Of a DNA stretch of 64,000 bases, positions 1,186-59,277 are shown one piece after another. The position numbers and the translations under genes were made by a program. Position 1 is the first letter of the stretch. Each line of letters begins with the position of its first letter. The notes beneath the pieces are model-generated. The model was not told where the DNA came from. It ran no database searches and saw only the letters and a list, made by a program, of their open reading frames with translations. This DNA is from Acidimicrobiia bacterium. GTDB lineage: Bacteria; Actinomycetota; Acidimicrobiia; Spongiisociales; UBA4744. The stretch lies in assembly GCA_029863625.1 (NCBI GenBank), contig JAOTUY010000001.1, positions 82,046 to 146,045 of the forward strand, read 5' to 3'.

Positions 1186-3225
1186 GTGAGACGAATCGGA
1201 TACCTGCCGTTGCTCCTCGTTGGACTTGCGCTCGTGCTGGCCGCCTGTACGCGAACCACCGCTGCCAACGACAAAACCGATGCGCCAACGTCCACCACCG
1301 CCCCGGAGACCACCAACACCACGTTGCAGTCCTATGCCGGAACCACCGCAGCGCCGGAGTTCCCGGTCGGGCTGGATTGGCTCAACACCGACCGCCCTCT
1401 GGCCCTCGAGCAACTCCACGGCAAGATCGTGATTCTCGATTTCTGGACCTATGGCTGCATCAATTGCATCCACGTCATCCCCGACCTCAAGCGCCTCGAA
1501 AAGGAGTACGCCGAGGAGTTGGTAGTGATCGGGGTGCATTCGGCCAAGTTCGAGGCTGAGGCCGACACCGACAACATTCGGCAGATCATTCTCCGCTACG
1601 GGCTCGAACATCCGGTGATCAACGACGCCGATTTCGCGGTGTGGAGCATCTGGGGAGCCCAGGCCTGGCCGACGCTGGCCATCGTCGATCCGGCCGGCAA
1701 TGTCGTCGGTGCGCACAGCGGTGAAGGCGTCTACGACCTGTTCAAGCCGGTCCTCGACTCATTGGTCGCGGAGTTCGAAGGTCAAATCGATCGCAGTTCA
1801 CTCGATATCAAACTCGAAAGGATAGGTCTGCCGGAGACGGCTCTGTCCTTCCCTGGGAAGGTTTTGGCCGACGCGGAGGGCGGTAGGTTGTTCATCGCCG
1901 ACACCAACCACCACCGGATCATCGTGACGGGCCTGGACGACGGCGAAGTGATCGAGGTCATCGGTAGTGGCGCTCAGGGGAGCGGTGACGGCTATCTCCG
2001 GACCGCAGCCTTCAACCAGCCTCAGGGCATTGCCTTGAGTGAGGATGGCGCGAGGCTGTACATCGCCGATACCGAGAATCATCTGATTCGCATGGTCGAT
2101 TTCTCCCGCGGGCAGGTTTCCAAGGTGGCAGGAACCGGTCACGCGGGTTTGTTTCCCCCGACGGGCGGTGTTGCATTGTCAACCGGTCTGAATTCTCCGT
2201 GGGACCTCACGATCGACAAGAACCGCTTGTTCGTGGCGATGGCCGGGTACCACCAGATCTGGGTGATTGATCTCGAGGAGGGAACAGCCGCACCCTACGC
2301 CGGGAACGCCCGGGAGAGCACCGTAAACGGGCCGCTGGCCGAGGCCGAATTGGCCCAGCCGAGTGGTGTCGCGCTCGACGGAACAGGGCGGCTCTACTTC
2401 GCCGACTCAGAGAGCAGCTCCATTCGCTGGGCGGACGTCGACGGTGATGATCGGATGGTGAACATCCTCGCCGGCAGCGACCAGGACCTCTTCACGTTCG
2501 GCGACGAGGAGGGGGTCGGAACTGCGGCACGATTGCAGCACCCGCTTGGCGTGGTCGTCGATGGGGAGTACGTGTGGGTGGCCGACACCTACAACTCAAA
2601 GATCAAGCGCATCGACCCTGAGACCGCGGAGGTGACCACTCTGGTGGGTGGGCGGGGTTGGCGGGATGGACCAGACCCGTTGTTTTATGAACCCGGTGGG
2701 ATCAGCGCGGCCAACGGCAAGCTCTACGTGGCCGATACCAACAATCATTCGGTTCGGGTCATCGATCAAATCTCCGGCGAGACGGAGACTCTGGTGCTCA
2801 CCGGACTGGAGCGATTTGTCATTGATGCAGGCGATGGTGCCTTCCCCTGGAAAACGGTGACACTCGATCAAATGGCCGTGGCACCCGGAGCCGGCCGCTT
2901 GCTGTTGGAAGTGGGTTTGCCGTCCGGGTACAAGGTCAACCCGCTGGCTCCCTCCCGCTTCGAGTGGAAAGTTGACGGGGGCGTAGCGGATCTGGCGTCG
3001 GAAGCCACCGGTTCGGTCGTGAACCCCTCGTTCCCGCTGGAGATACCGGCCACCTTCAACACTGGAACCGGCTCGATCACCGGCGACCTATACATCGTGT
3101 ATTGCGAATCCGAGCAAGAAAGCATCTGCCTCATCGACCAGGCCCGGGTAGTGGTGCCGTTGACCGTCGGTGCGGGAGGGTCAACGGTTGCCATCAAATA
3201 CGCGATCGAGTTGCCCGACCGATAA
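1186..3225 (+). CDS. Lipoprotein with a thioredoxin-like (redoxin, CxxC=CINC) domain fused to an NHL-repeat beta-propeller (NHLRC2-like)
   Basis: A GTG at 1186 gives VRRIGYLPLLLVGLALVLAAC (lipobox LAAC) and a Thr-rich linker. Trx-like motif LDFWTYGCINCIHVIPDLKRLEKEY...VIGVHSAKFE. Multiple NHL repeats (FNQPQGIALSEDGARLYIADTENHLIRMVD, LNSPWDL, YVADTNNHSVRVID). The 5' part of track ORF 787..3225 has no start upstream. Confidence 0.75.
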   Translation: MRRIGYLPLLLVGLALVLAACTRTTAANDKTDAPTSTTAPETTNTTLQSYAGTTAAPEFPVGLDWLNTDRPLALEQLHGKIVILDFWTYGCINCIHVIPDLKRLEKEYAEELVVIGVHSAKFEAEADTDNIRQIILRYGLEHPVINDADFAVWSIWGAQAWPTLAIVDPAGNVVGAHSGEGVYDLFKPVLDSLVAEFEGQIDRSSLDIKLERIGLPETALSFPGKVLADAEGGRLFIADTNHHRIIVTGLDDGEVIEVIGSGAQGSGDGYLRTAAFNQPQGIALSEDGARLYIADTENHLIRMVDFSRGQVSKVAGTGHAGLFPPTGGVALSTGLNSPWDLTIDKNRLFVAMAGYHQIWVIDLEEGTAAPYAGNARESTVNGPLAEAELAQPSGVALDGTGRLYFADSESSSIRWADVDGDDRMVNILAGSDQDLFTFGDEEGVGTAARLQHPLGVVVDGEYVWVADTYNSKIKRIDPETAEVTTLVGGRGWRDGPDPLFYEPGGISAANGKLYVADTNNHSVRVIDQISGETETLVLTGLERFVIDAGDGAFPWKTVTLDQMAVAPGAGRLLLEVGLPSGYKVNPLAPSRFEWKVDGGVADLASEATGSVVNPSFPLEIPATFNTGTGSITGDLYIVYCESEQESICLIDQARVVVPLTVGAGGSTVAIKYAIELPDR

Positions 3226-3364
3226 CGCGACACTCCTCGATCGGTCCACTCAACAGGTGATAGCTCCGTTGCGAAGTTCCACTTGTGCGGGTTCTCGATG
3301 TCCGGGGCCCGGACGAACGTGCCCACGCCTTGTCTATCGATGGATACCGAGGGACGATGGTCTC

Positions 3365-4609
3365 GTGCACATCACCATCGTCACCATTGGATCCCGCGGC
3401 GACGTTGAGCCGTATCTCGCCCTCGGGAAGGGACTCTTGCTGGCGGGGCACACGGTGCGCCTCTCCACCCACGACCGGTTCCGGCCGGAGATCCGGGAGG
3501 CGGGTCTCGAGTTCAGCCCGATCACCGGCGATCCGCGCCAATTGGTGGAGGATGAGGCCGGGAAACGATGGCTCGAGAGCGGACGCAACCCGGTCCGGAT
3601 CATGCGGCGCCTGCTCGATGTCTCCGGACCGTTCTTTTCGCAGTTGCTGCAGGATTGTGAGACGGCCATGGCGGGAACCGGTGCGGTCTTGTTCTCCGTT
3701 CTGGCTTTTCCCGCTTACCACCTGGCGGAGGCTTCCCGGATCCCAGCCGTTGCGGCCTATCTGCAGCCCATGACACGCACTCGGGAGCTCCCCAGTATGT
3801 TCGTGAAAGCAGGAGGGCCCGGATTCTGGAACCTCTGGTCACATGTTGCCGCCGAGCAGATCACCTGGCAGCCGCTCCGCCGTGAGGTCAACCGATGGCG
3901 GAGAAGCCTGGGACTCGGCCCGCTCCCCGTATCGGGGCTGTACCGGCCCGTCTATCGGTCGATGCCGGTTCTGTACGGGTTCTCGCCGGCCGTAGTGCCA
4001 CCGCCGACCGACTGGCCCGCCCTTGTGAAGGTGACCGGATACTGGTTCCCGGCGGTCGGCGACAACCGGCGCCCGCCGGAGCGTGTCACGCAGTTCCTGG
4101 ATGACGGCCCGGCCCCTGTTTACGTCGGATTTGGCAGCCGTCCTGAGCGGCGGCCCCAGGAACTCGCCGACCTGGTGCTGGCCGCCGTCAGGCAGGCCGG
4201 TCGACGGGCGATCCTGCTGACGGGATGGGGTGGACTCACCGTTCCCGACTCGAGCGACGACGTGCTGGTGGTCGATGAGATCCGTCACGACTGGCTGTTC
4301 CCGCAGATGTCGGCGGTCGTGCATCACGGTGGGGCAGGCACGACGGGGACGGCCCTGCAGTCGGGAATCCCGTCGATCGTGGTGCCTTCCTTCGCCGACC
4401 AGTTCTTCTGGGGGGAGCGGGTGGCAGCGTTGGGAGTCGGACTGAACCTGCCGCGGCGCAAGCTCATTCCGGAGTCCCTGGCCGGGGCGATCACGGCCAC
4501 CTCCGATCCGGCAATGGGCCGAAGGGCGGTTGACCTTGGCGTGAAGCTTCGTGCTGAGAACGGCGTCCGGCGGGCCGTCGACGAACTGACCTCTATCTTC
4601 AATCTCTGA
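3365..4609 (+). CDS. GT1-family glycosyltransferase (MGT / macrolide-type UDP-glycosyltransferase)
   Basis: HITIVTIGSRGDVEPYLALGKGLLLAGHTVRL N-domain. C-terminal UDP-sugar motif HHGGAGTTGTALQSGIPSIVVPSFADQFFWG. GTG start at 3365 is in frame with track ORF 3170. Confidence 0.8.
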   Translation: MHITIVTIGSRGDVEPYLALGKGLLLAGHTVRLSTHDRFRPEIREAGLEFSPITGDPRQLVEDEAGKRWLESGRNPVRIMRRLLDVSGPFFSQLLQDCETAMAGTGAVLFSVLAFPAYHLAEASRIPAVAAYLQPMTRTRELPSMFVKAGGPGFWNLWSHVAAEQITWQPLRREVNRWRRSLGLGPLPVSGLYRPVYRSMPVLYGFSPAVVPPPTDWPALVKVTGYWFPAVGDNRRPPERVTQFLDDGPAPVYVGFGSRPERRPQELADLVLAAVRQAGRRAILLTGWGGLTVPDSSDDVLVVDEIRHDWLFPQMSAVVHHGGAGTTGTALQSGIPSIVVPSFADQFFWGERVAALGVGLNLPRRKLIPESLAGAITATSDPAMGRRAVDLGVKLRAENGVRRAVDELTSIFNL

Positions 4610-52830: not shown

Positions 52831-52914
52831 GATGGTCCCCGTTGGTCACGCTGATGGTAGATCGCACCGAGCCGGGGTGGGGCGGGCAGGGCAACCCCGG
52901 AAGGTTGCCGGAAG

Positions 52915-52985
52915 AGCGGGTGAGGGGAATTGAACCCCCGTTCCAAGCTTGGGAAGCTCGTGTTCTACCACTGAACTACACCCGC
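52915..52985 (-). tRNA. tRNA-Gly (anticodon CCC)
   Basis: The reverse complement folds as a cloverleaf: acceptor GCGGGTG/CACCCGC, D-arm GTTC-AGTGGTA-GAAC, anticodon stem/loop CGAGC-TTCCCAA-GCTTG, T-arm GGGGG-TTCAATT-CCCCT. CCA is not encoded. Confidence 0.85.
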
Positions 52986-53046
52986 AGGATTGGCATTCTA
53001 CCTGGCCTTTCGTGCGTTCACCGCTTGTCACTGTCTTGCATCGGTT

Positions 53047-53454
53047 TCAAACAAACCGGGTCCTGCGCGCGCCCTGGCAAATGCGATCAATGTCGCGGCC
53101 CGATCGACGAGACATACCCCCTGCGCAATATCGGCATGAGTCCCGACGCGCAGCTCCGGCGGGGCAGACCCGACGGGCCGGAACGTCGCGTACGACTTCG
53201 GGATACCTATTGGCAGGGTTTCGGTGAACAGGGCCGCTACTTGCCGGCCAGTCCGCCACCTGCACCAGGCCCTCAACTCGAGATCCATTCGGAGCGGTGA
53301 ACAGCACCGGGACCGTTCTTTTACTCCGAGGGGTGAGCTTGTTGCGGAGACCGGTGACATGCGGCATGGTGAGACGGCTGGCGTCGCCGCCGTAGCTGCG
53401 GGGATCCGGGATGTTCAGCTCGACGTCGTTGAGGTCGTCGATGTCTGGGTACAC
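53047..53454 (-). CDS. Hypothetical small protein (GTG start)
   Basis: 135-aa ORF 15 nt after the P450-fusion stop. Strong GC3 bias in the first roughly 40 codons, weaker afterwards. No recognisable motif. Confidence 0.3.
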   Translation of the reverse strand: MYPDIDDLNDVELNIPDPRSYGGDASRLTMPHVTGLRNKLTPRSKRTVPVLFTAPNGSRVEGLVQVADWPASSGPVHRNPANRYPEVVRDVPARRVCPAGAARRDSCRYCAGGMSRRSGRDIDRICQGARRTRFV

Positions 53455-53469
53455 GTCGCCGGCGCCGTC

Positions 53470-55614
53470 CTACGCGGTGCCGACTGCTCGCCTGCTCACG
53501 ACCACCGGTAGGTGGGTCGGGCCGGTCAGCCGGTCGGATTCGAGCATCGAGATCCGTTCCGGGTCGACTTGAAGCTCCATCTCGTGGAGCCGGGGCCTGA
53601 TCGCCGCCAGCGCTGCTTGGGCCTCCAACAACGCCAGGCGCGCCCCGGGGCACCGATGCGGCCCGGCACCGAACGCCAGGTTCGACACGAGATCTGCCAG
53701 GCGCGTGCTCTCGGCATCCGGAGTTTCGGCGCCGTTTGCTGCGGCGAGGTTCGCAGCAACCACGGTGCGCGCGGCGAGCGATCGCTCACCAATCGCCGTC
53801 TCCTGGGTCACCAGCCGGTACACCCGGGCGACAGGTGGCCGGGTCCATAACACCTGTCCAAGGAGCGCTTGGTCCGATAGGCGCGCCCTGGGCGGCACGC
53901 CGGCGGCGAACAACGCGACTAGGGCATTGCCGATCAGGTGCGTCGTCGTTTCGTTGCCGGCCACTAGGAGCAAGCGGGCCACGCTGACCGCCTCCTCTGC
54001 GGCCAGGGCCTGGAGACCGTGCAGGATGGAGCTGATGAGATCCGCTCCGGGCGCCCGCTGCAGCCGGTCGACCAGGGCGACCAGCGCTTCTTCGAGTTCC
54101 GCGAGGTCACTCTCCGAATCGATCGAGTCACCTCCCTGCCTAACCCCGGTGCCGGCCAACACCACGGCGTCGGACCATCGGCCAAGGTCTGCAAGAGGCA
54201 CGCCGTCCAATCCGAGGAGCCATCCCATCGTGGCCACTGGGAGAGGTTTGGCGAAGTCGCCGACGAGATCACCGGTCCCTCTGGTGAAGATCTGTCCAAC
54301 GAGACGGGCGGCGAGTGATCGAACTTCGGGCTCGAGCGCAGCGACCCGGCTGTCCGACAGGGCCTGCGTCAGCGCCCGGCGCGTGCGTGTGTGCGCCGGC
54401 GGGTCGGCTCCCAGCAGAACGGGATCCGCCGCGGCCATAATGGAAGAGGAGAACGACTCCGGGTCGCGCAGCACTGTGATCACGTTGTCGCGGCCGGTGA
54501 TCTCGACAGGACTCGCCGGCGCTTTGTCGGCGGGTCGCCGGGAGGTGGTTGCGGATCGGATTGGGGTCACCTCGAGCGGCGGTGCCGGATCCGACGGGGA
54601 GACTTCGAGCCTCGTTTGTATCGCCCTCAAGGAGCTGAGCACAGTGGCGGCCGTGTAGTTCCGGTTCTGATCGAAGATGATCGATCCGGCGCCCCTTCCG
54701 GACGCTACCCATCCGTCATGGTGTTGCGGATCGACGACGTTGGGCGGCGGGATTCGTAGCGACGCCGACGCCGCCCACGCTCCATCCGCGGCTTGGGTGG
54801 CGAGGAGCCAGCCGGCTGCGCGCTCCAGTCGGTCCAACACACTGTCGGGGCCCCAGCGGGCCATGGTCTCCGCGGCACAGGCCGTGGCGAAGGATGACCC
54901 GCTGGGGTGCCAACGCGTCGCAACGGCCCCGACCACATCGACGCGTGAGCACATGGCGAGGGCCGCTCGCTGGAGTCGCTCCAGGTTGTCCGGTGCTGCG
55001 GCGCGCCCCAGCATGCGGCCCGCCAGCATGGTGGGGTACTCATCGTCGGCCCACCAGTATCCGGTCCAGGACCCGTCGGCGTTTTGCACCGATCTGAGGT
55101 ATTCGACGGCGCGCTGATGACCCGCATACTCGGGGATATCGGCGGCAGCCGTCACGCACACGTGATCGCCGCACCACCCCGCGAACGAGATGGAGCCCGA
55201 AAGCTTCGTGAATGCCCCGATCCTCCCGGCGGATCGGAACGTGGCGACCGCCCCCGACGGACGAGCGTGCCGGGCTACCAAGTCCAGCGCCCGGCTCGCC
55301 CGTCGGCCGCCGAGGTTGCCCATCCGTTCCGCCAGCTGCAGCGCCCACAATGTGGAGTCCGCGTCCGTTGGCACCCTCCGGTTGTAACCCCAGCCACGCT
55401 CCCAGCGCCGGCGACGCCGCAGCAGCCGCCATGCATGGCGCGCCGCCTCACGAGCCCGTTGCTCGGGCTCACCCGCGATCGCGACGGCGACATAGGCCGT
55501 CACCCACTCGTCGCTCGCTCCGGCCAGGGTGTCGAAGTCGCGCCACCAGCCTCGGCGGTCCCGACCGGTCAGCAGGAACTCGGTTGCCCGGTCGCGACCA
55601 GCCTGGATCTCCAT
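53470..55614 (-). CDS. Fusion protein: N-terminal class-II terpene-cyclase-like (squalene-hopene-cyclase repeat) domain plus C-terminal cytochrome P450
   Basis: N-domain: FLLTGRDRRGWW, DEWVTAYVAVAIAG, VPTDADSTLWALQLA (DxDD to DADS), QNADGSWTGYWW, QAADGAWAAS (QW motifs). C-domain: I-helix LVAGNETTTHLIGNA, heme loop FGAGPHRCPGARLA. ATG at 55614. Track residues 1-162 are an Arg-rich artefact overlapping the next gene. Confidence 0.75.
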   Translation of the reverse strand: MEIQAGRDRATEFLLTGRDRRGWWRDFDTLAGASDEWVTAYVAVAIAGEPEQRAREAARHAWRLLRRRRRWERGWGYNRRVPTDADSTLWALQLAERMGNLGGRRASRALDLVARHARPSGAVATFRSAGRIGAFTKLSGSISFAGWCGDHVCVTAAADIPEYAGHQRAVEYLRSVQNADGSWTGYWWADDEYPTMLAGRMLGRAAAPDNLERLQRAALAMCSRVDVVGAVATRWHPSGSSFATACAAETMARWGPDSVLDRLERAAGWLLATQAADGAWAASASLRIPPPNVVDPQHHDGWVASGRGAGSIIFDQNRNYTAATVLSSLRAIQTRLEVSPSDPAPPLEVTPIRSATTSRRPADKAPASPVEITGRDNVITVLRDPESFSSSIMAAADPVLLGADPPAHTRTRRALTQALSDSRVAALEPEVRSLAARLVGQIFTRGTGDLVGDFAKPLPVATMGWLLGLDGVPLADLGRWSDAVVLAGTGVRQGGDSIDSESDLAELEEALVALVDRLQRAPGADLISSILHGLQALAAEEAVSVARLLLVAGNETTTHLIGNALVALFAAGVPPRARLSDQALLGQVLWTRPPVARVYRLVTQETAIGERSLAARTVVAANLAAANGAETPDAESTRLADLVSNLAFGAGPHRCPGARLALLEAQAALAAIRPRLHEMELQVDPERISMLESDRLTGPTHLPVVVSRRAVGTA

Positions 55615-55622
55615 CTGAGAGG

Positions 55623-56252
55623 TCAGCAGGATGCGGTGATGTACGTCGCGTTGGGGGCCAGCACTTGTGCGCCGGCGTTGGCAGTGGGGCCGCTGCTCCA
55701 GCTTCCGCCGCTGAGCACCTTCACCGACACCTGCCCGGTCGACGGATTCCACACGACGAACTCGCCGGCCCTCAGTCCGCCCCCGATGGCCGATGTTTCG
55801 CCGCAGAAGGCGTTCACCGTCGCTCCGCCGGGGTTGATCGTGCCTCGGCCGACGTAGAAGCGGTTCTCCAGCGCCCACGAGTCGAGCTCGCCGCCGCCGC
55901 ACGAGTGGACGATCTCGTGAAAGACCGTCACGTCCGTGTCCGCTTGCACATTGGGTGGTAACGCCAGCGCACACATGTTGATGCTGTCCCCGTCCCGCGG
56001 TGCGGTGCCGAAGATGCCCGCCCGGCAGCTGCCTCCGAGACAGTCCACGTTCACCGACGCAATCGTCTTGCCGGCGAGCCGGTTCGCCAGGGTGGCGCAC
56101 TCGCCGCCCAACGCAGCCACCTGGGCCCGAATCGTGTTTTGCATGAAGTTGAAAGCGGAGGTGATCGCGTTGCGGTCGTTGAGATTGCAGTTCGGTACCT
56201 CCGTACCGCCTCCGGACCAGCTGCCGCCCTCGGTGTGTGTTACGAACGGCAT
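55623..56252 (-). CDS. Cys-rich HExxH zinc-metallopeptidase-like protein
   Basis: VTVFHEIVHSCGGGE (HExxHxxGxxE). About 10 Cys, no signal peptide. ATG at 56252 lies 7 nt after the upstream stop, with GAGG. Confidence 0.55.
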   Translation of the reverse strand: MPFVTHTEGGSWSGGGTEVPNCNLNDRNAITSAFNFMQNTIRAQVAALGGECATLANRLAGKTIASVNVDCLGGSCRAGIFGTAPRDGDSINMCALALPPNVQADTDVTVFHEIVHSCGGGELDSWALENRFYVGRGTINPGGATVNAFCGETSAIGGGLRAGEFVVWNPSTGQVSVKVLSGGSWSSGPTANAGAQVLAPNATYITASC

Positions 56253-56259
56253 GGAAGCC

Positions 56260-56721
56260 TCAGGACTCGAACTGCCACAGCACAAGCACGCCGCGGCTCA
56301 GTGGAAGGGGTACCTTCGAACCCTCGCTCGCGGCGCGGTACGAGCCGACCTGGGCCCGGCGGGCGTACATCGCCGCATCGGCGGGCTCGAGTGCGATCTC
56401 CCATCGAACCACGCCACCATCCGGAAGCTCTTGCGCACTCTGCAGCTTGATGGGCTCCTCGAGGTTCTGACCCTCGAACGGCGACTCGCCCTCCATCTCG
56501 ATGGGCTCGCCGTCACGCTCGTAGAGCTGCAATTTCCACGCCGCCACCTTCTTCTCCTCCATGAAGTGCACCTCGATGGAGGCTTTGCGTCCGTTGGCAT
56601 CGACGAGCTGGCCGGACCAGACGCTACGTTCTTGGGCCACGCGCGCTCCTTTCGCTGAGCGGCTCGGCGATGCCGGGCGTAGCCGGGACACCGCAGCCGG
56701 GTGGTCGTAGGCCGAAAGCAT
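56260..56721 (-). CDS. Hypothetical 153-aa acidic protein
   Basis: ORF between the acyltransferase and the HExxH gene. No known motif. Confidence 0.45.
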   Translation of the reverse strand: MLSAYDHPAAVSRLRPASPSRSAKGARVAQERSVWSGQLVDANGRKASIEVHFMEEKKVAAWKLQLYERDGEPIEMEGESPFEGQNLEEPIKLQSAQELPDGGVVRWEIALEPADAAMYARRAQVGSYRAASEGSKVPLPLSRGVLVLWQFES

Positions 56722-56731
56722 ACACTCGGGC

Positions 56732-57691
56732 TCACGCCTTGTAGGCGATTCTTTCGATGGCCTCGAGCACCGAGGACGAGTCGTCGTGGGCGCTCATCGT
56801 CGGCAGGACTGCGGCCCCGCCGGCAGCTTCAGTCACTGCGGTGGACAAGATGGGGTGAGGGCCGACTTCGACGAAGGTTCGTATGCCGGCGCGCGCCATG
56901 GAGCGGACAGCGGATACAAAGAGTGCCGGTTCGGACATGACGCGCCACCAGTAGTCGATTGTCAGGCGAGACCCATCGATGGCAGCGCCCTTGAGCGAGG
57001 AGTAGAAGGGCGCCGGTGCCGAGCGGGGCCGGATCGACGAGGCGGCGGCACGGAACGGCTCGCGCAGCGGCTCCATCTCGGCGCAGTGGAAGGCATACCG
57101 CAGCGTCTGCCGGCGCGTCCCGAGGCCCCGGGCGGCCACCACTGCCAGCGCCGAGTCGACGGCGCCCTCTTCGCCGGTGATCACGGTTGCCGTCGGGCTG
57201 AGCTCGACGGCGATCCAGACGTCGTCTCGTCCGTCGATGGTTTCCCGTACCGCCTCGGCTGATGCCAGCACCAGGGCCATTTGTCCGGACCGTAGCGGGC
57301 GTCGGATGGCCTCCGCTTCGGCGCCGGCAACGGCGATGGCGTCCTCCAGGCTCAATGAGCCGATGGACCACGCCGCGGCGAGTTCCCCCATGCTGAGACC
57401 CACCACCGCGTCCGGCGCCACCCCGGCATCGGCTAGCATCGCCGCTAACCCGATTTGAACGGCCGTGAGCACGGGCTGCACCCGATCCGGCTCTGCGTCG
57501 GAACCTCCCAGCCGCGACACCTTCTCGAGAATCGACCAGCCGAACTGATGTCGGCAGGCGGCATCGCAATCGGCCATCGCTTTGGCGAAGGCGGCATTGT
57601 CTAGTAGCAGTCCGTCGGCCATCCCGGGCCACTCCCCGCCCTGGGAGGAGAACACGAAGGCCACGGCGCCGGTCGTGAATAGGTCGTTCAC
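56732..57691 (-). CDS. Stand-alone acyltransferase (malonyl-CoA:ACP transacylase / PKS-AT fold) with a GLSMG active site
   Basis: AFVFSSQGGEWPGM (compare FVFPGQGSQ), GLSMGELAAAW (GHSxG variant), AFHCAEM. GTG at 57691 overlaps the upstream stop as GTGA. 320 aa, which matches FabD length. Confidence 0.7.
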   Translation of the reverse strand: MNDLFTTGAVAFVFSSQGGEWPGMADGLLLDNAAFAKAMADCDAACRHQFGWSILEKVSRLGGSDAEPDRVQPVLTAVQIGLAAMLADAGVAPDAVVGLSMGELAAAWSIGSLSLEDAIAVAGAEAEAIRRPLRSGQMALVLASAEAVRETIDGRDDVWIAVELSPTATVITGEEGAVDSALAVVAARGLGTRRQTLRYAFHCAEMEPLREPFRAAASSIRPRSAPAPFYSSLKGAAIDGSRLTIDYWWRVMSEPALFVSAVRSMARAGIRTFVEVGPHPILSTAVTEAAGGAAVLPTMSAHDDSSSVLEAIERIAYKA

Positions 57692-58677
57692 GGCTGAATG
57701 TGGGATGCGCCGAACCACGAGTACACCACCGAGGGCAGGGCCGAGTGGAGCCAGCCCGGTACCTGCGCCCCGGCTGGGAGCCGATGCCGCCATTCCTCGA
57801 GGCTGTGCACTCCACGGGAGACGATGCGGGCTGCCACGGCGGCCGGCGGGCGGGACCGGAGCGCGATCTCCACCAGGTTGGGCTCGTTTGCCTGCTCGTC
57901 CGCCTCGATGTCCATCGCGTCGTCGATTGCGCCGATGAACGCGCCGACGCCGAACATCCAACGGAGGTGCCACAGGAAGGTCGCCCGATCGGGAGATTGC
58001 GCCGGGAGCCACGCGGGCAGTCCCAGGACCACGAAGGGGAGCGCCGCTTTACGACGGAGCAAACCCGGCACCGCCAGTACCCCCGGTCGCGTCAGCGCCA
58101 CCTCAGCGGCGTGCATGCGCACCACGGCGTCGTCAAGTAACCGCCGAACCGTCTGGGCGGCGTCGCCGTGGGGGAGATCGTCCACCTCCGAGAAGTACCG
58201 CCTGACGAGCAGCGCCACGGCTCGGCCCGGCGCGAGCAAGTCTCGGGACCGTCGCCGAGGAGCGCCAGCCCAGTGCCCTAACAGGTCGAAAACGTCTTCG
58301 GGGAGCAAGCCGTTCGCTGGGATCCCTGCGTCGAGAAACGCGTCGTAGACCGTGACGATGAGGTTGGCGAGCGCCCCGATGTCGGCGACCCATTGCTCGA
58401 GGTCTGGTGCCAGGCCCAGCGGTGCGATCAAGAAACGGGTGAGGAGCCAGCCGAAGCCCATGATGCGGACAGGGTCGTCCGGACCCAGCGCCGTGGGCAG
58501 GGTGGCCATCGCGTCGAGCCAGGTCCTCGACCCCGCCAGCGGATCCAGGTCCCTCCAGAGACGTGCCCCTTGGCGCGACACGTGCCCGCGCACGTCCTGG
58601 TAGACGTGCGCGGACGGGATCAACTCGCGTGTCATCAGCTCATCCCAGACGAGCCGGCGAACAGTCACCGCAGGCAA
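57688..58677 (-). CDS. All-alpha protein with Asp-rich motifs at class-I terpene-synthase-like spacing (function unknown)
   Basis: VYDAFLD (roughly residue 112) and IDDAMDIEADE (roughly residue 252), about 140 aa apart. 329 aa with no TM. Translationally coupled to the acyltransferase. Confidence 0.5.
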   Translation of the reverse strand: MPAVTVRRLVWDELMTRELIPSAHVYQDVRGHVSRQGARLWRDLDPLAGSRTWLDAMATLPTALGPDDPVRIMGFGWLLTRFLIAPLGLAPDLEQWVADIGALANLIVTVYDAFLDAGIPANGLLPEDVFDLLGHWAGAPRRRSRDLLAPGRAVALLVRRYFSEVDDLPHGDAAQTVRRLLDDAVVRMHAAEVALTRPGVLAVPGLLRRKAALPFVVLGLPAWLPAQSPDRATFLWHLRWMFGVGAFIGAIDDAMDIEADEQANEPNLVEIALRSRPPAAVAARIVSRGVHSLEEWRHRLPAGAQVPGWLHSALPSVVYSWFGASHIQP

Positions 58678-59015
58678 TGGGACACATCCGCAAAGAGGCC
58701 GAGAACGAGATCACGCTCTACAGCGCCGCTCAGTTTCGGCACCTGGGCTGGACCGACCATGCGTCACCCTACCCGCGGCGCCAAGGTGCCGACGTAGGTC
58801 GAGGGTACGGGTCGTCGGCAGAAGGCTCAATTGATTCGTCTGATACGTCCCGATCATAGCCGCCGCCTTCGCTGGTGCTGCCTCCGCTCCGAGCGGCAAC
58901 CGAAAGGGGCCGATGGGCTTGACCGGGATGTCGCCCATGCGTCGACGAGGTGAGCCGTGATGCCGGTGTCACGTGGAGTGGGTGTTGCTTCCGTGCGTGA
59001 CTCCGACTCCGGACA

Positions 59016-59231
59016 CTATGAGAAGACGCTGGCCCCTCCCCACACGGCCAAGATAACTCCGACGGCGCCCAGGAACCAGGCTCGACCCGGCCGGAATTCA
59101 CCTTCCACTCCCCGCGGGCGCTCGCCTCGCCGATTCTTGAAGATGGCCAAGCCGTTGCCTAGGACCATCGCCAGTCCGATGGCCAGCACCACCTCAGGGA
59201 ACAAGCTCTCCAACCCAAAGATGTCATCCAT
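59016..59231 (-). CDS. Small 2-TM membrane protein
   Basis: 71 aa, two hydrophobic helices. No clear Shine-Dalgarno. Confidence 0.35.
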   Translation of the reverse strand: MDDIFGLESLFPEVVLAIGLAMVLGNGLAIFKNRRGERPRGVEGEFRPGRAWFLGAVGVILAVWGGASVFS

Positions 59232-59277
59232 CGGCCGTCACGGTAGCGGGTATGGTTGCTCTCTCGAAAGGAGCTGC

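Follow-up and report, generated by a model that had tools for sequence, protein, structure and literature searches.

The stretch of DNA considered here, 64,000 nucleotides of contig JAOTUY010000001.1 from an Acidimicrobiia bacterium and called the window in what follows, carries on its minus strand five tightly coupled genes, A to E, which together form one operon (53470-58677). In about 50 loci, independent of one another and drawn from genomes and metagenomes, homologues of C, of D, of the cyclase part of E and of A are co-located; the loci represent at least six bacterial phyla and one archaeal metagenome-assembled genome (MAG). These four families are the conserved core of a cassette, to which the acyltransferase B and the cytochrome P450 part of E are lineage-specific additions. 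The cassette is read here, with a probability of about 0.45, as one that is related to the ComQ/PalQ and PC systems of peptide prenylation and cyclisation but differs from them in its set of genes, and in which a tryptophan would be prenylated, the prenyl chain cyclised by a class II enzyme, the product oxidised or acylated and its carrier processed by proteolysis. An initial annotation, made from the letters of the window alone, had proposed an undescribed biosynthetic or modification system at this position. The co-location of the families, together with literature searches for this gene combination, in which no publication describing the cassette was found, bears the proposal out; that the core consists of C, D, cyclase and A, and not of the acyltransferase or the P450, goes beyond it. 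The five genes are the following.

57688-58677, minus strand: gene A, 329 amino acids, a class I terpenoid-synthase-fold enzyme.
56732-57691, minus strand: gene B, 319 amino acids, a stand-alone acyltransferase domain.
56260-56640, minus strand: gene C, 126 amino acids, an orphan protein.
55623-56252, minus strand: gene D, 209 amino acids, an aspzincin-like peptidase.
53470-55614, minus strand: gene E, a cyclase domain (54610-55614, amino acids 1-335) fused to a P450 domain (53470-54501, amino acids about 372-714).

The couplings from which a single operon of co-directional genes had been deduced are exact in the sequence. The stop codon TGA of A (57690-57688) overlaps the start codon GTG of B (57691-57689) in the GTGA at 57688-57691, seven nucleotides lie between the stop codon of C and the start ATG of D (56253-56259), and eight between the stop codon of D and the start ATG of E (55615-55622). 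All five genes have a strong codon-position GC bias, and their trimmed starts agree both with homologues and with the public gene calls for the identical locus, the E protein being identical to NCBI OEM81_04530. The reading frames of 876 and 426 amino acids in the mechanical list are high-GC read-through, and the true starts are at 55614 and 57691, respectively. Gene A starts at TTG 58677 or GTG 58668, while ATG 58635 is disfavoured because the N-terminal helix is conserved in homologues. For C, the likeliest start is GTG 56640, with AAAGGAG five nucleotides upstream and with homologues that begin at the same point; from this placement follows a gap of about 91 nucleotides between B and C. An N-terminal extension of C to ATG 56721, which would give 153 amino acids, is rejected on codon-position composition, as the additional 81 nucleotides (56641-56721) have no GC bias of this kind.

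The gene that links the block to known chemistry is E. Its residues 8-329 align to residues 29-360 of MstE (PDB 6SBB/6SBF) with a phmmer E value of 3e-64, the corresponding value for the 'prenylcyclase' 6IJ1 is 4e-53, and the domain has only weak matches to the Pfam model SQHop_cyclase. The cyclase motif WGYN...D84AD86ST is found at 55351-55365, with its DAD aligned to the DAD of MstE; in the alignment of WGYNRRVPTDADST of E to WGYNYILCGDADTT of MstE, a DxD proton-donor motif stands in place of DxDD. Judged by full-length homology and by this motif, the N-terminal domain is an MstE-type monodomain class II terpene cyclase. The C-terminal domain is a cytochrome P450 (PDB P450 matches at 1e-35 and below; NCBIfam Cyp119, 1e-28), which keeps the Cys loop FGAGPHRCPG (53644-53673) and the I-helix motif AGNETT (53944-53961) and from which about 40 N-terminal residues are missing. 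The fusion of a squalene-cyclase-repeat domain to a P450, as first described, is therefore the fusion of an MstE-type cyclase to a P450.

MstE acts on an aryl-C20 meroterpenoid, i.e., on a prenyl chain already attached to an aromatic group, and has the DxD motif (PMC12324236). In the bifunctional 'PC' enzymes ChrPC and NctPC, which belong to pathways for peptides that are made on ribosomes and modified after translation (RiPPs), a prenyltransferase domain puts a C10-C20 chain on a peptide tryptophan and an MstE-like domain cyclises it (Hubrich et al., Chem 2024, as reviewed in PMC13290415). In these two papers, the characterised cyclases of the MstE clade act on prenyl chains attached to aromatic groups, and none is described on a diphosphate substrate (PMC12324236, PMC13290415). 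The cyclase thus ties the block to peptide prenylation-cyclisation chemistry, which means that the system is not without relatives.

The nearest relatives of the E cyclase outside the cassette are proteins of about 700 residues, with an unassigned N-terminal domain and an MstE-like C-terminal domain, which are encoded inside RiPP clusters. Their identity to the E cyclase is about 39-44% at loci L005 and L008 and 37% at L006. L005 (10001-12109, 662-2701) is a lasso-type cluster with PqqD, Asn synthase, transglutaminase-core and ABC genes and an acyltransferase-P450 fusion; L006 (10001-12022), from Constrictibacter, combines PqqD and an HPr-kinase-like protein with two P450s and a methyltransferase; L008 (4935-7142) has five NHLP precursors and LanM. 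The fusion proteins look like relatives of the PC enzymes. The recurrence of an acyltransferase and a P450 beside an MstE-like cyclase in an unrelated peptide cluster suggests that both tailor the terpenoid part.

Gene A is a divergent class I terpenoid-synthase-fold enzyme. Structures were predicted for A and D, and in both cases the fold is rated confident and the catalytic residues are intact. A has the isoprenoid-synthase alpha fold with two invariant Asp motifs, YD112xxxD116 (58330-58347) and D252DxxD256xxxD260 (57898-57924), in accordance with the all-alpha protein with Asp motifs at terpene-synthase spacing of the initial annotation. The second motif (D252-D256-D260) has the 1-5-9 spacing of the NSE/DTE triad with Asp in all three positions, and the first, compared with DDxxD on helix D, is reduced to D112xxxD116. 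No sequence-level link connects A to solved structures or to Pfam.

Gene D is an aspzincin-like zinc metallopeptidase, a peptidase by fold, in accordance with the zincin-like protein with HExxH of the initial annotation. The motif H112ExxH116 (55905-55919) is followed by D124 (within 55878-55892), and the combination is invariant among the homologues of D; HExxH with a downstream Asp ligand on an aspzincin fold is a feature of the aspzincins (M35), and D has it, with no sequence match in Pfam, NCBIfam or PDB. There is no signal peptide: the N-terminus, MxFxTHTEGGSW, shows conservation from residue 3 onwards. Two Gly-rich Trp motifs, GGSW12SGGG (56205-56228) and GGSW185 (55692-55709), place their tryptophans, of which W12 is invariant, between beta strands in the AlphaFold2 secondary structure. 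Moreover, in 31 of 48 complete homologues a Pro/Gly-rich linker leads to a terminal poly-Gly-(Ser)-Trp, with or without Ile/Val after it, as exemplified by GGGW, GGSWI and GGGGGGWI. The only sequence-level link of D to a solved structure, a short match of its C-terminal region to designed propeller blades, is regarded as a resemblance between beta-hairpins. A separate family of 356-387 amino acids at loci L063-L069 (e.g., L065, 7848-8918) has only the catalytic core of D (residues about 21-141) in common with it, matches Peptidase_M76 weakly and has none of the partners of D in its vicinity; D may stem from this wider family.

Gene C remains, as first reported, a protein of no family, with no match in Pfam, NCBIfam, PADLOC or PDB, though its length is likelier 126 than 153 amino acids. 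Nearly all relatives have 114-159 amino acids, and the conserved positions are W8, G10, D14, G17, A93, G99, Y101, G117 (100%), W122 (92%) and F124. The protein ends in ...SRG-VLVLW-QFES (56263-56292), and in 40 of 59 sequences a tryptophan is followed by two to four residues and then the stop. In ComX pheromones the tryptophan has a similar position.

Gene B is a stand-alone acyltransferase domain of the polyketide synthase (PKS) type (PF00698, 5e-57). Its best NCBIfam matches are acyltransferase regions of type I PKSs; FabD is matched with only 6e-22, with an equivalog score of 78 where the cut-off is 261. The Ser/His dyad is kept, with the Ser in GLSMG (57386-57400) and the His, equivalent to His201 of FabD, in YAFH (57086-57097). 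Compared with GHSxG of FabD, the elbow GLSMG keeps the Ser and has Leu for His, and by a motif alignment with a FabD reference, the position of the malonyl-binding Arg117 is taken by Glu or Gln. From this exchange follows that B is not a malonyl-specific FabD. Searches of the 64-kb window by phmmer with Escherichia coli queries gave no acyl carrier protein (ACP), FabH-type ketosynthase or polyprenyl synthase, while ketosynthases of the FabF or PKS type were not searched for. The identification of B as a FabD malonyl-CoA:ACP transacylase is accordingly rejected, as Arg117 and the elbow His are gone, the equivalog score is below its cut-off and no ACP was found. By its sequence, B belongs to the acyltransferase superfamily and not to FabD, so that of the FabD-like acyltransferase in a window devoid of ACP and ketosynthase, as first proposed, the acyltransferase stands and FabD does not; the absence of partners holds for ACP and FabH-type ketosynthase. 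In kind, the initial domain guesses are borne out for all five proteins.

The evidence that these genes belong together comes from other genomes. A contig from JGI, with an E homologue of 45% identity, has the same five-gene arrangement, and since D is the best conserved gene of the cassette, with 78% identity between the window and this contig compared with 36-54% for the other genes, D was chosen as probe. A scan of 185,579 species genomes gave 14 loci. These are found in MAGs assigned to Burkholderiales, Vicinamibacterales, Prolixibacteraceae, Sediminibacterium, Mariniphaga, Roseivirgaceae, Terrimonas sp., Acidobacteria, Solirubrobacteraceae, Micrococcales, Actinomycetota, a delta proteobacterium and a Nitrososphaeraceae archaeon, and in the cultured strain Terrimonas ginsenosidimutans NA20 (L015). 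A metagenome scan gave 47 more. The bearers, among them Acidimicrobiia, Burkholderiales, Acidobacteriota, Bacteroidota and Solirubrobacteraceae, are bacteria of soil, sediment and freshwater. The families are rare: there are 52 clusters of D, 26 relatives of E and, among 1.84 billion proteins, 42 representatives of C.

The open reading frames of each locus were labelled with profiles, and loci with at least 2.6 kb on both sides were taken as well flanked (n = 20). Of the 48 loci with enough upstream sequence, 44 have C directly upstream of D. Among the well-flanked loci, C is present in 19, the MstE-like cyclase in 17, and A or its distant subfamily A' (hhalign probability 98.3% between the two) in 17 of 20, and in apparent exceptions the missing genes are displaced or divergent (L013, L014). 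The acyltransferase and the P450 are limited to 4 of these 20 loci. The order of the genes changes from locus to locus, their membership does not: the arrangement is A-B-C-D-[cyclase~P450] at L001 as in the window, and elsewhere cyclase-A-B-C-D-P450, cyclase-A-C-D, C-D-cyclase-A or C1-C2-D-cyclase-A'.

Some loci depart from this pattern in detail. In the archaeal MAG (L014, 7983-11950), C-D and an A-like gene are accompanied by a cyclase-like gene on the other strand; the explanation is either a passage of the cassette between domains or mis-binning of the contig. Sediminibacterium has two D genes (L013, 8528-9187 and 10001-10648), extra copies of C are present at L011 (11806-12237) and L023, and loci of the L019-L023 type have a regular C1-C2 tandem in which C1 is devoid of the C-terminal Trp. 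In T. ginsenosidimutans NA20 (L015, 9564-13623), C-D-cyclase-A is followed by a GNAT acetyltransferase and a MarR regulator.

What surrounds the cassettes is variable. In a Pfam census of 146 neighbouring open reading frames around 24 cassettes, no family is enriched, none is found at more than two loci, and the commonest accounts for 2 of the 146 frames. No transporter, RiPP recognition element (RRE), regulator or short precursor is a conserved partner around these 24, and neither here nor in the window are LanM or lasso genes found, nor, in the window, an RRE or a short precursor. The cassette is therefore self-contained, and from this follows further that any polypeptide substrate must be encoded inside it. 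A polyprenyl synthase adjoins the cassette in one lineage only (L032/L033). In this lineage (L032, 8389-10126; L033, 3244-4981), three short D-like fragments of 54, 57 and 102 amino acids, which look like a broken second copy of D, lie downstream of the P450 and are followed by the polyprenyl synthase (PF00348, 2e-51).

To see how the components could work together, consider a polyprenyl diphosphate from primary metabolism. A would bind it through its two Asp motifs, ionise it and transfer the chain to an aromatic acceptor. The likeliest acceptor would be the indole of a tryptophan near the C-terminus of a polypeptide encoded in the cassette; in the window this would be C, with its ...GVLVLW-QFES terminus, and in most other cassettes the poly-Gly-Trp tail of D would be a second candidate. 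The cyclase domain of E, like MstE and the C domains of PC enzymes, would then protonate the terminal double bond of the chain by means of the DxD aspartate and fold it into a polycyclic terpenoid. The P450 domain would oxidise this terpenoid, B would acylate the new hydroxyl with a non-malonyl acyl group, and D would cleave the carrier polypeptide, so that a lipidated product is released or matured. The couplings, folds, catalytic motifs, cross-phylum co-localisation, self-containment and Trp motifs near C-termini are observations from which such a scheme starts; its substrate and acceptor, the order of its steps and its product are what we infer from them. Precedents exist for its first step. 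ComQ and PalQ are tryptophan prenyltransferases of isoprenoid-synthase fold, for which a DDxxD first motif and a Gln before the second Asp-rich motif (SARM) serve as criteria, and PalQ favours Gly before the Trp, in GW and GGW motifs (PMC13290415). PalQ, once annotated as a terpene synthase, strictly needs a C-terminal Trp, and its precursor has a folded NHLP leader domain (PMC10853753).

Several observations weigh against this scheme. A is devoid of both the DDxxD first motif and the Gln before the SARM, the family consensus having F-I-G-A-I before DDAMD; it is therefore not of ComQ/PalQ type by motif criteria and has the fold alone in common with these enzymes. In structure it is best matched by terpene cyclases, among them class I diterpene synthases that act after class II enzymes, and A as a detached P domain of the PC-like fusion proteins is rejected, since the hhalign probability against their N-terminal domains is 0.1%. 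The cassette contains no RRE, transporter or classical short precursor gene. The conservation of C spreads over its whole sequence and, together with an alternating sequence pattern, suggests an apparently beta-rich folded domain; the C-terminal tryptophan, in an all-hydrophobic stretch, looks like part of a buried strand of such a domain rather than of a free core peptide. The poly-Gly-Trp tail is missing from the D of the window, as from its subfamily and from most cassettes with acyltransferase and P450, where a Cys is often found within the last three residues. Finally, the P450 of E has QVLW (53845-53856, residues 587-590) for ExxR and must be called atypical for this loss. The other fused copy, at L001, is likewise degenerate (TVLR), while the unfused P450s of sister cassettes keep EETLR; the fused domain may have changed its function or be in decay.

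Some of these observations would be expected if the product were a small (mero)terpenoid, the main alternative, which we consider possible though on the whole unlikely. Cyclase and A could be a class II/class I pair, acting on a free prenyl diphosphate to give a labdane-type terpenoid; alternatively, A could prenylate a free aromatic such as tryptophan or a benzoate, after which the cyclase would act as in the formation of merosterolic acid. P450 and acyltransferase would tailor the product, C would bind or carry it as a hydrophobic molecule, and D would be an accessory hydrolase, or else C and D a separate inhibitor-protease pair. Class II cyclase, class I synthase and P450 together are the standard logic of bacterial diterpenoid clusters, in accordance with the diterpene-synthase-like fold of A. 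The folded appearance of C and the lack of short precursor gene, RRE and exporter fit as well, MstE itself uses a small molecule, and Ord1, another enzyme of isoprenoid-synthase fold, farnesylates free Trp (PMC13290415). Such a pathway has, however, no role for the two most tightly linked and best conserved genes, of which D, the most conserved of all, is a peptidase by fold, and it leaves the conserved poly-Gly-Trp tails unexplained. It also requires, in its first version, that a cyclase of the MstE clade act on a diphosphate, for which the papers cited describe no case (PMC12324236, PMC13290415), and most cassettes are without a dedicated prenyl synthase.

The conservation of D could instead mean that D is itself the end product, which we regard as improbable. 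In this case A would prenylate tryptophans of D, in the Gly-rich tail and/or in the GGSW motifs (W12, W185), and the chain would be cyclised on the protein to a sterol-like anchor of a cytoplasmic metalloprotease, for which C would chaperone the lipid or inhibit the protease. The conservation of D indeed greatly exceeds that of the enzymes, the motif GGSW is present three times (W12, W185 and tail), with W12 and W185 between beta strands in the AlphaFold2 prediction, C and D are almost always adjacent, and there is neither an exporter nor a short precursor gene. On the other side, a third of the D proteins, that of the window included, have no tail, the sequence is compatible with W12 and W185 being exposed as well as structural, and we know of no described case of a whole bacterial protein that bears a cyclised terpenoid on tryptophan.

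That the block is a chance juxtaposition of unrelated genes, or an artefact of gene calling in a high-GC genome, which does yield many spurious long reading frames in this region and one probable non-gene among the six, is effectively refuted by the co-localisation data, in which the families are found together at about 50 loci across phyla, in changed order and with unchanged membership, and is also at odds with the exact couplings, the codon-position GC bias of all five genes and the confident folds with intact catalytic residues. The initial annotation had named two things that would speak against it, families that are scattered in other genomes and couplings that stem from wrongly trimmed reading frames; the co-localisation is conserved and the couplings are real, so that both objections fall.

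Outside the operon, three further features of the locus are to be mentioned.

53047-53454, minus strand: a sixth reading frame, 135 amino acids, with codon-position GC of 0.68/0.57/0.68, i.e., without bias.
58678-59277, minus strand: the intergenic region upstream of the operon, between the divergent PhzF gene and gene A, where its promoter presumably lies.
59016-59231, minus strand: a reading frame of 71 amino acids between the PhzF gene and gene A, the sequence of which suggests two hydrophobic helices.

The sixth reading frame has no Pfam or NCBIfam family match, no tblastn match beyond the same species and no counterpart in other cassettes, and gene callers disagree on it. It is not counted as a gene, because it has neither GC bias nor family nor counterpart, and it is probably non-coding spacer between E and tRNA-Gly; of the five to six genes initially counted, five thus remain. 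Public annotations of this locus list the reading frame of 71 amino acids as a gene; it has no Pfam match, and no comparable reading frame is reported by gene callers at L001. A sigma-70 consensus was sought in 58678-59277 without a match, and promoter or terminator signals around the block do not rise above background.

The flanks are ordinary housekeeping genes, as had been stated: dcd and tRNA-Gly(CCC) (52914-52985) on one side, PhzF and a CDF transporter on the other. Between the tRNA gene and the stop of E lie approximately 485 base pairs (52986-53469) with neither a convincing gene nor a repeat of the tRNA end. The GC content of the block is 0.67-0.70, compared with 0.60-0.64 for the flanking dcd, SurE, PhzF and CDF genes, and the GC content at third codon positions is 0.79-0.85, compared with 0.70-0.73. 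The initial proposal of an inserted accessory operon is supported by this composition shift and by the patchy cross-phylum distribution, the shift being the only one among the acquisition tests at the locus that favours acquisition. A tRNA-associated integrative island is not supported, as the window has no att-like repeats of the tRNA 3' end and no integrase in its gene list; the block also sits 5' of the tRNA-Gly gene, not the usual side for tRNA-targeted integration. A plasmid origin is rejected, as tblastn gave no match for D among 72,556 plasmids, and so is anti-phage defence, for which none of the six reading frames has a PADLOC match. At L001, the closest full cassette outside this species, a resolvase/HTH_7 gene (2895-3365, minus strand) adjoins the cassette and is the sole mobility-type neighbour of any.

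The role of MstE-type cyclases and tryptophan prenyltransferases in making peptide-terpenoid hybrids is a recent discovery, and the number of characterised systems is very small. The present cassette is compact, with four to six genes, and brings together components not seen in known systems: a new terpenoid-synthase-fold family, a peptidase of aspzincin-like kind that is obligatory and often has a poly-Gly-Trp tail, an orphan partner found almost nowhere else and, in some lineages, a coupled acyltransferase and P450. If a peptide or protein is the substrate, the cassette would open a route to new lipidated peptides or to a new lipid anchor of proteins, and its enzymes could serve for site-selective lipidation of peptides. 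If the product is a small molecule, it would be a new type of terpenoid pathway with an unexplained requirement for a protease.

Among the known systems, MstE is the closest to the cyclase, as the N-terminal 330 residues of E are homologous to it from end to end, with WGYN...DxD and the size of a single alpha/alpha-barrel domain (about 350 amino acids) in common. The MstE pathway uses a UbiA-type prenyltransferase and chorismate-derived aromatic chemistry, whereas the E cyclase, joined to a P450 in one protein, is accompanied by a peptidase, an orphan protein and a soluble enzyme of terpenoid-synthase fold. With labdane-related clusters, in which the class I enzyme is, e.g., Sat1646 or LrdC, the cassette has in common the logic of class II enzyme, class I enzyme and P450, and the best structural matches of A are of their class I kind. 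The class II enzyme of the cassette, in contrast, is a DxD monodomain and not a beta-gamma didomain with DxDD, no geranylgeranyl diphosphate synthase was found in the window, and peptidase and C have no counterpart in these clusters. From the aspzincins (MEROPS M35: deuterolysin, peptidyl-Lys metalloendopeptidase, AsaP1), D differs in that it is without sequence-level family match, signal peptide and propeptide, has an extra C-terminal beta domain as well as the Gly-rich Trp motifs, and is encoded in a terpenoid cassette.

With the ComQ/ComX and PalQ/PalX systems, the cassette has in common a soluble enzyme of the isoprenoid-synthase superfamily, and the tails of D (GGW, GGSWI) and the C-terminus of C (W-x-F/Y) fit their tryptophan pattern. 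Those systems are, however, without cyclase, peptidase, acyltransferase and P450, and the cassette is without their kinase or regulator partner. The PC enzymes ChrPC and NctPC, compared by way of their description (PMC13290415), have the same MstE-like cyclase module, which there acts after a prenyltransferase on a peptide Trp. Here, A is a separate gene and not homologous to the N-terminal domains of the fusion proteins, the cyclase of the window is fused to a P450 instead, LanM, lasso and RRE genes and a short precursor are lacking, and the peptidase and C are obligatory partners. With a prenyltransferase that is unfused and non-homologous, and with no genes of a RiPP class, the system falls outside the PC-fusion family; under the reading preferred here, it would stand beside both the PC and the ComQ/PalQ systems as a relative that performs prenylation and cyclisation with a gene set of its own.

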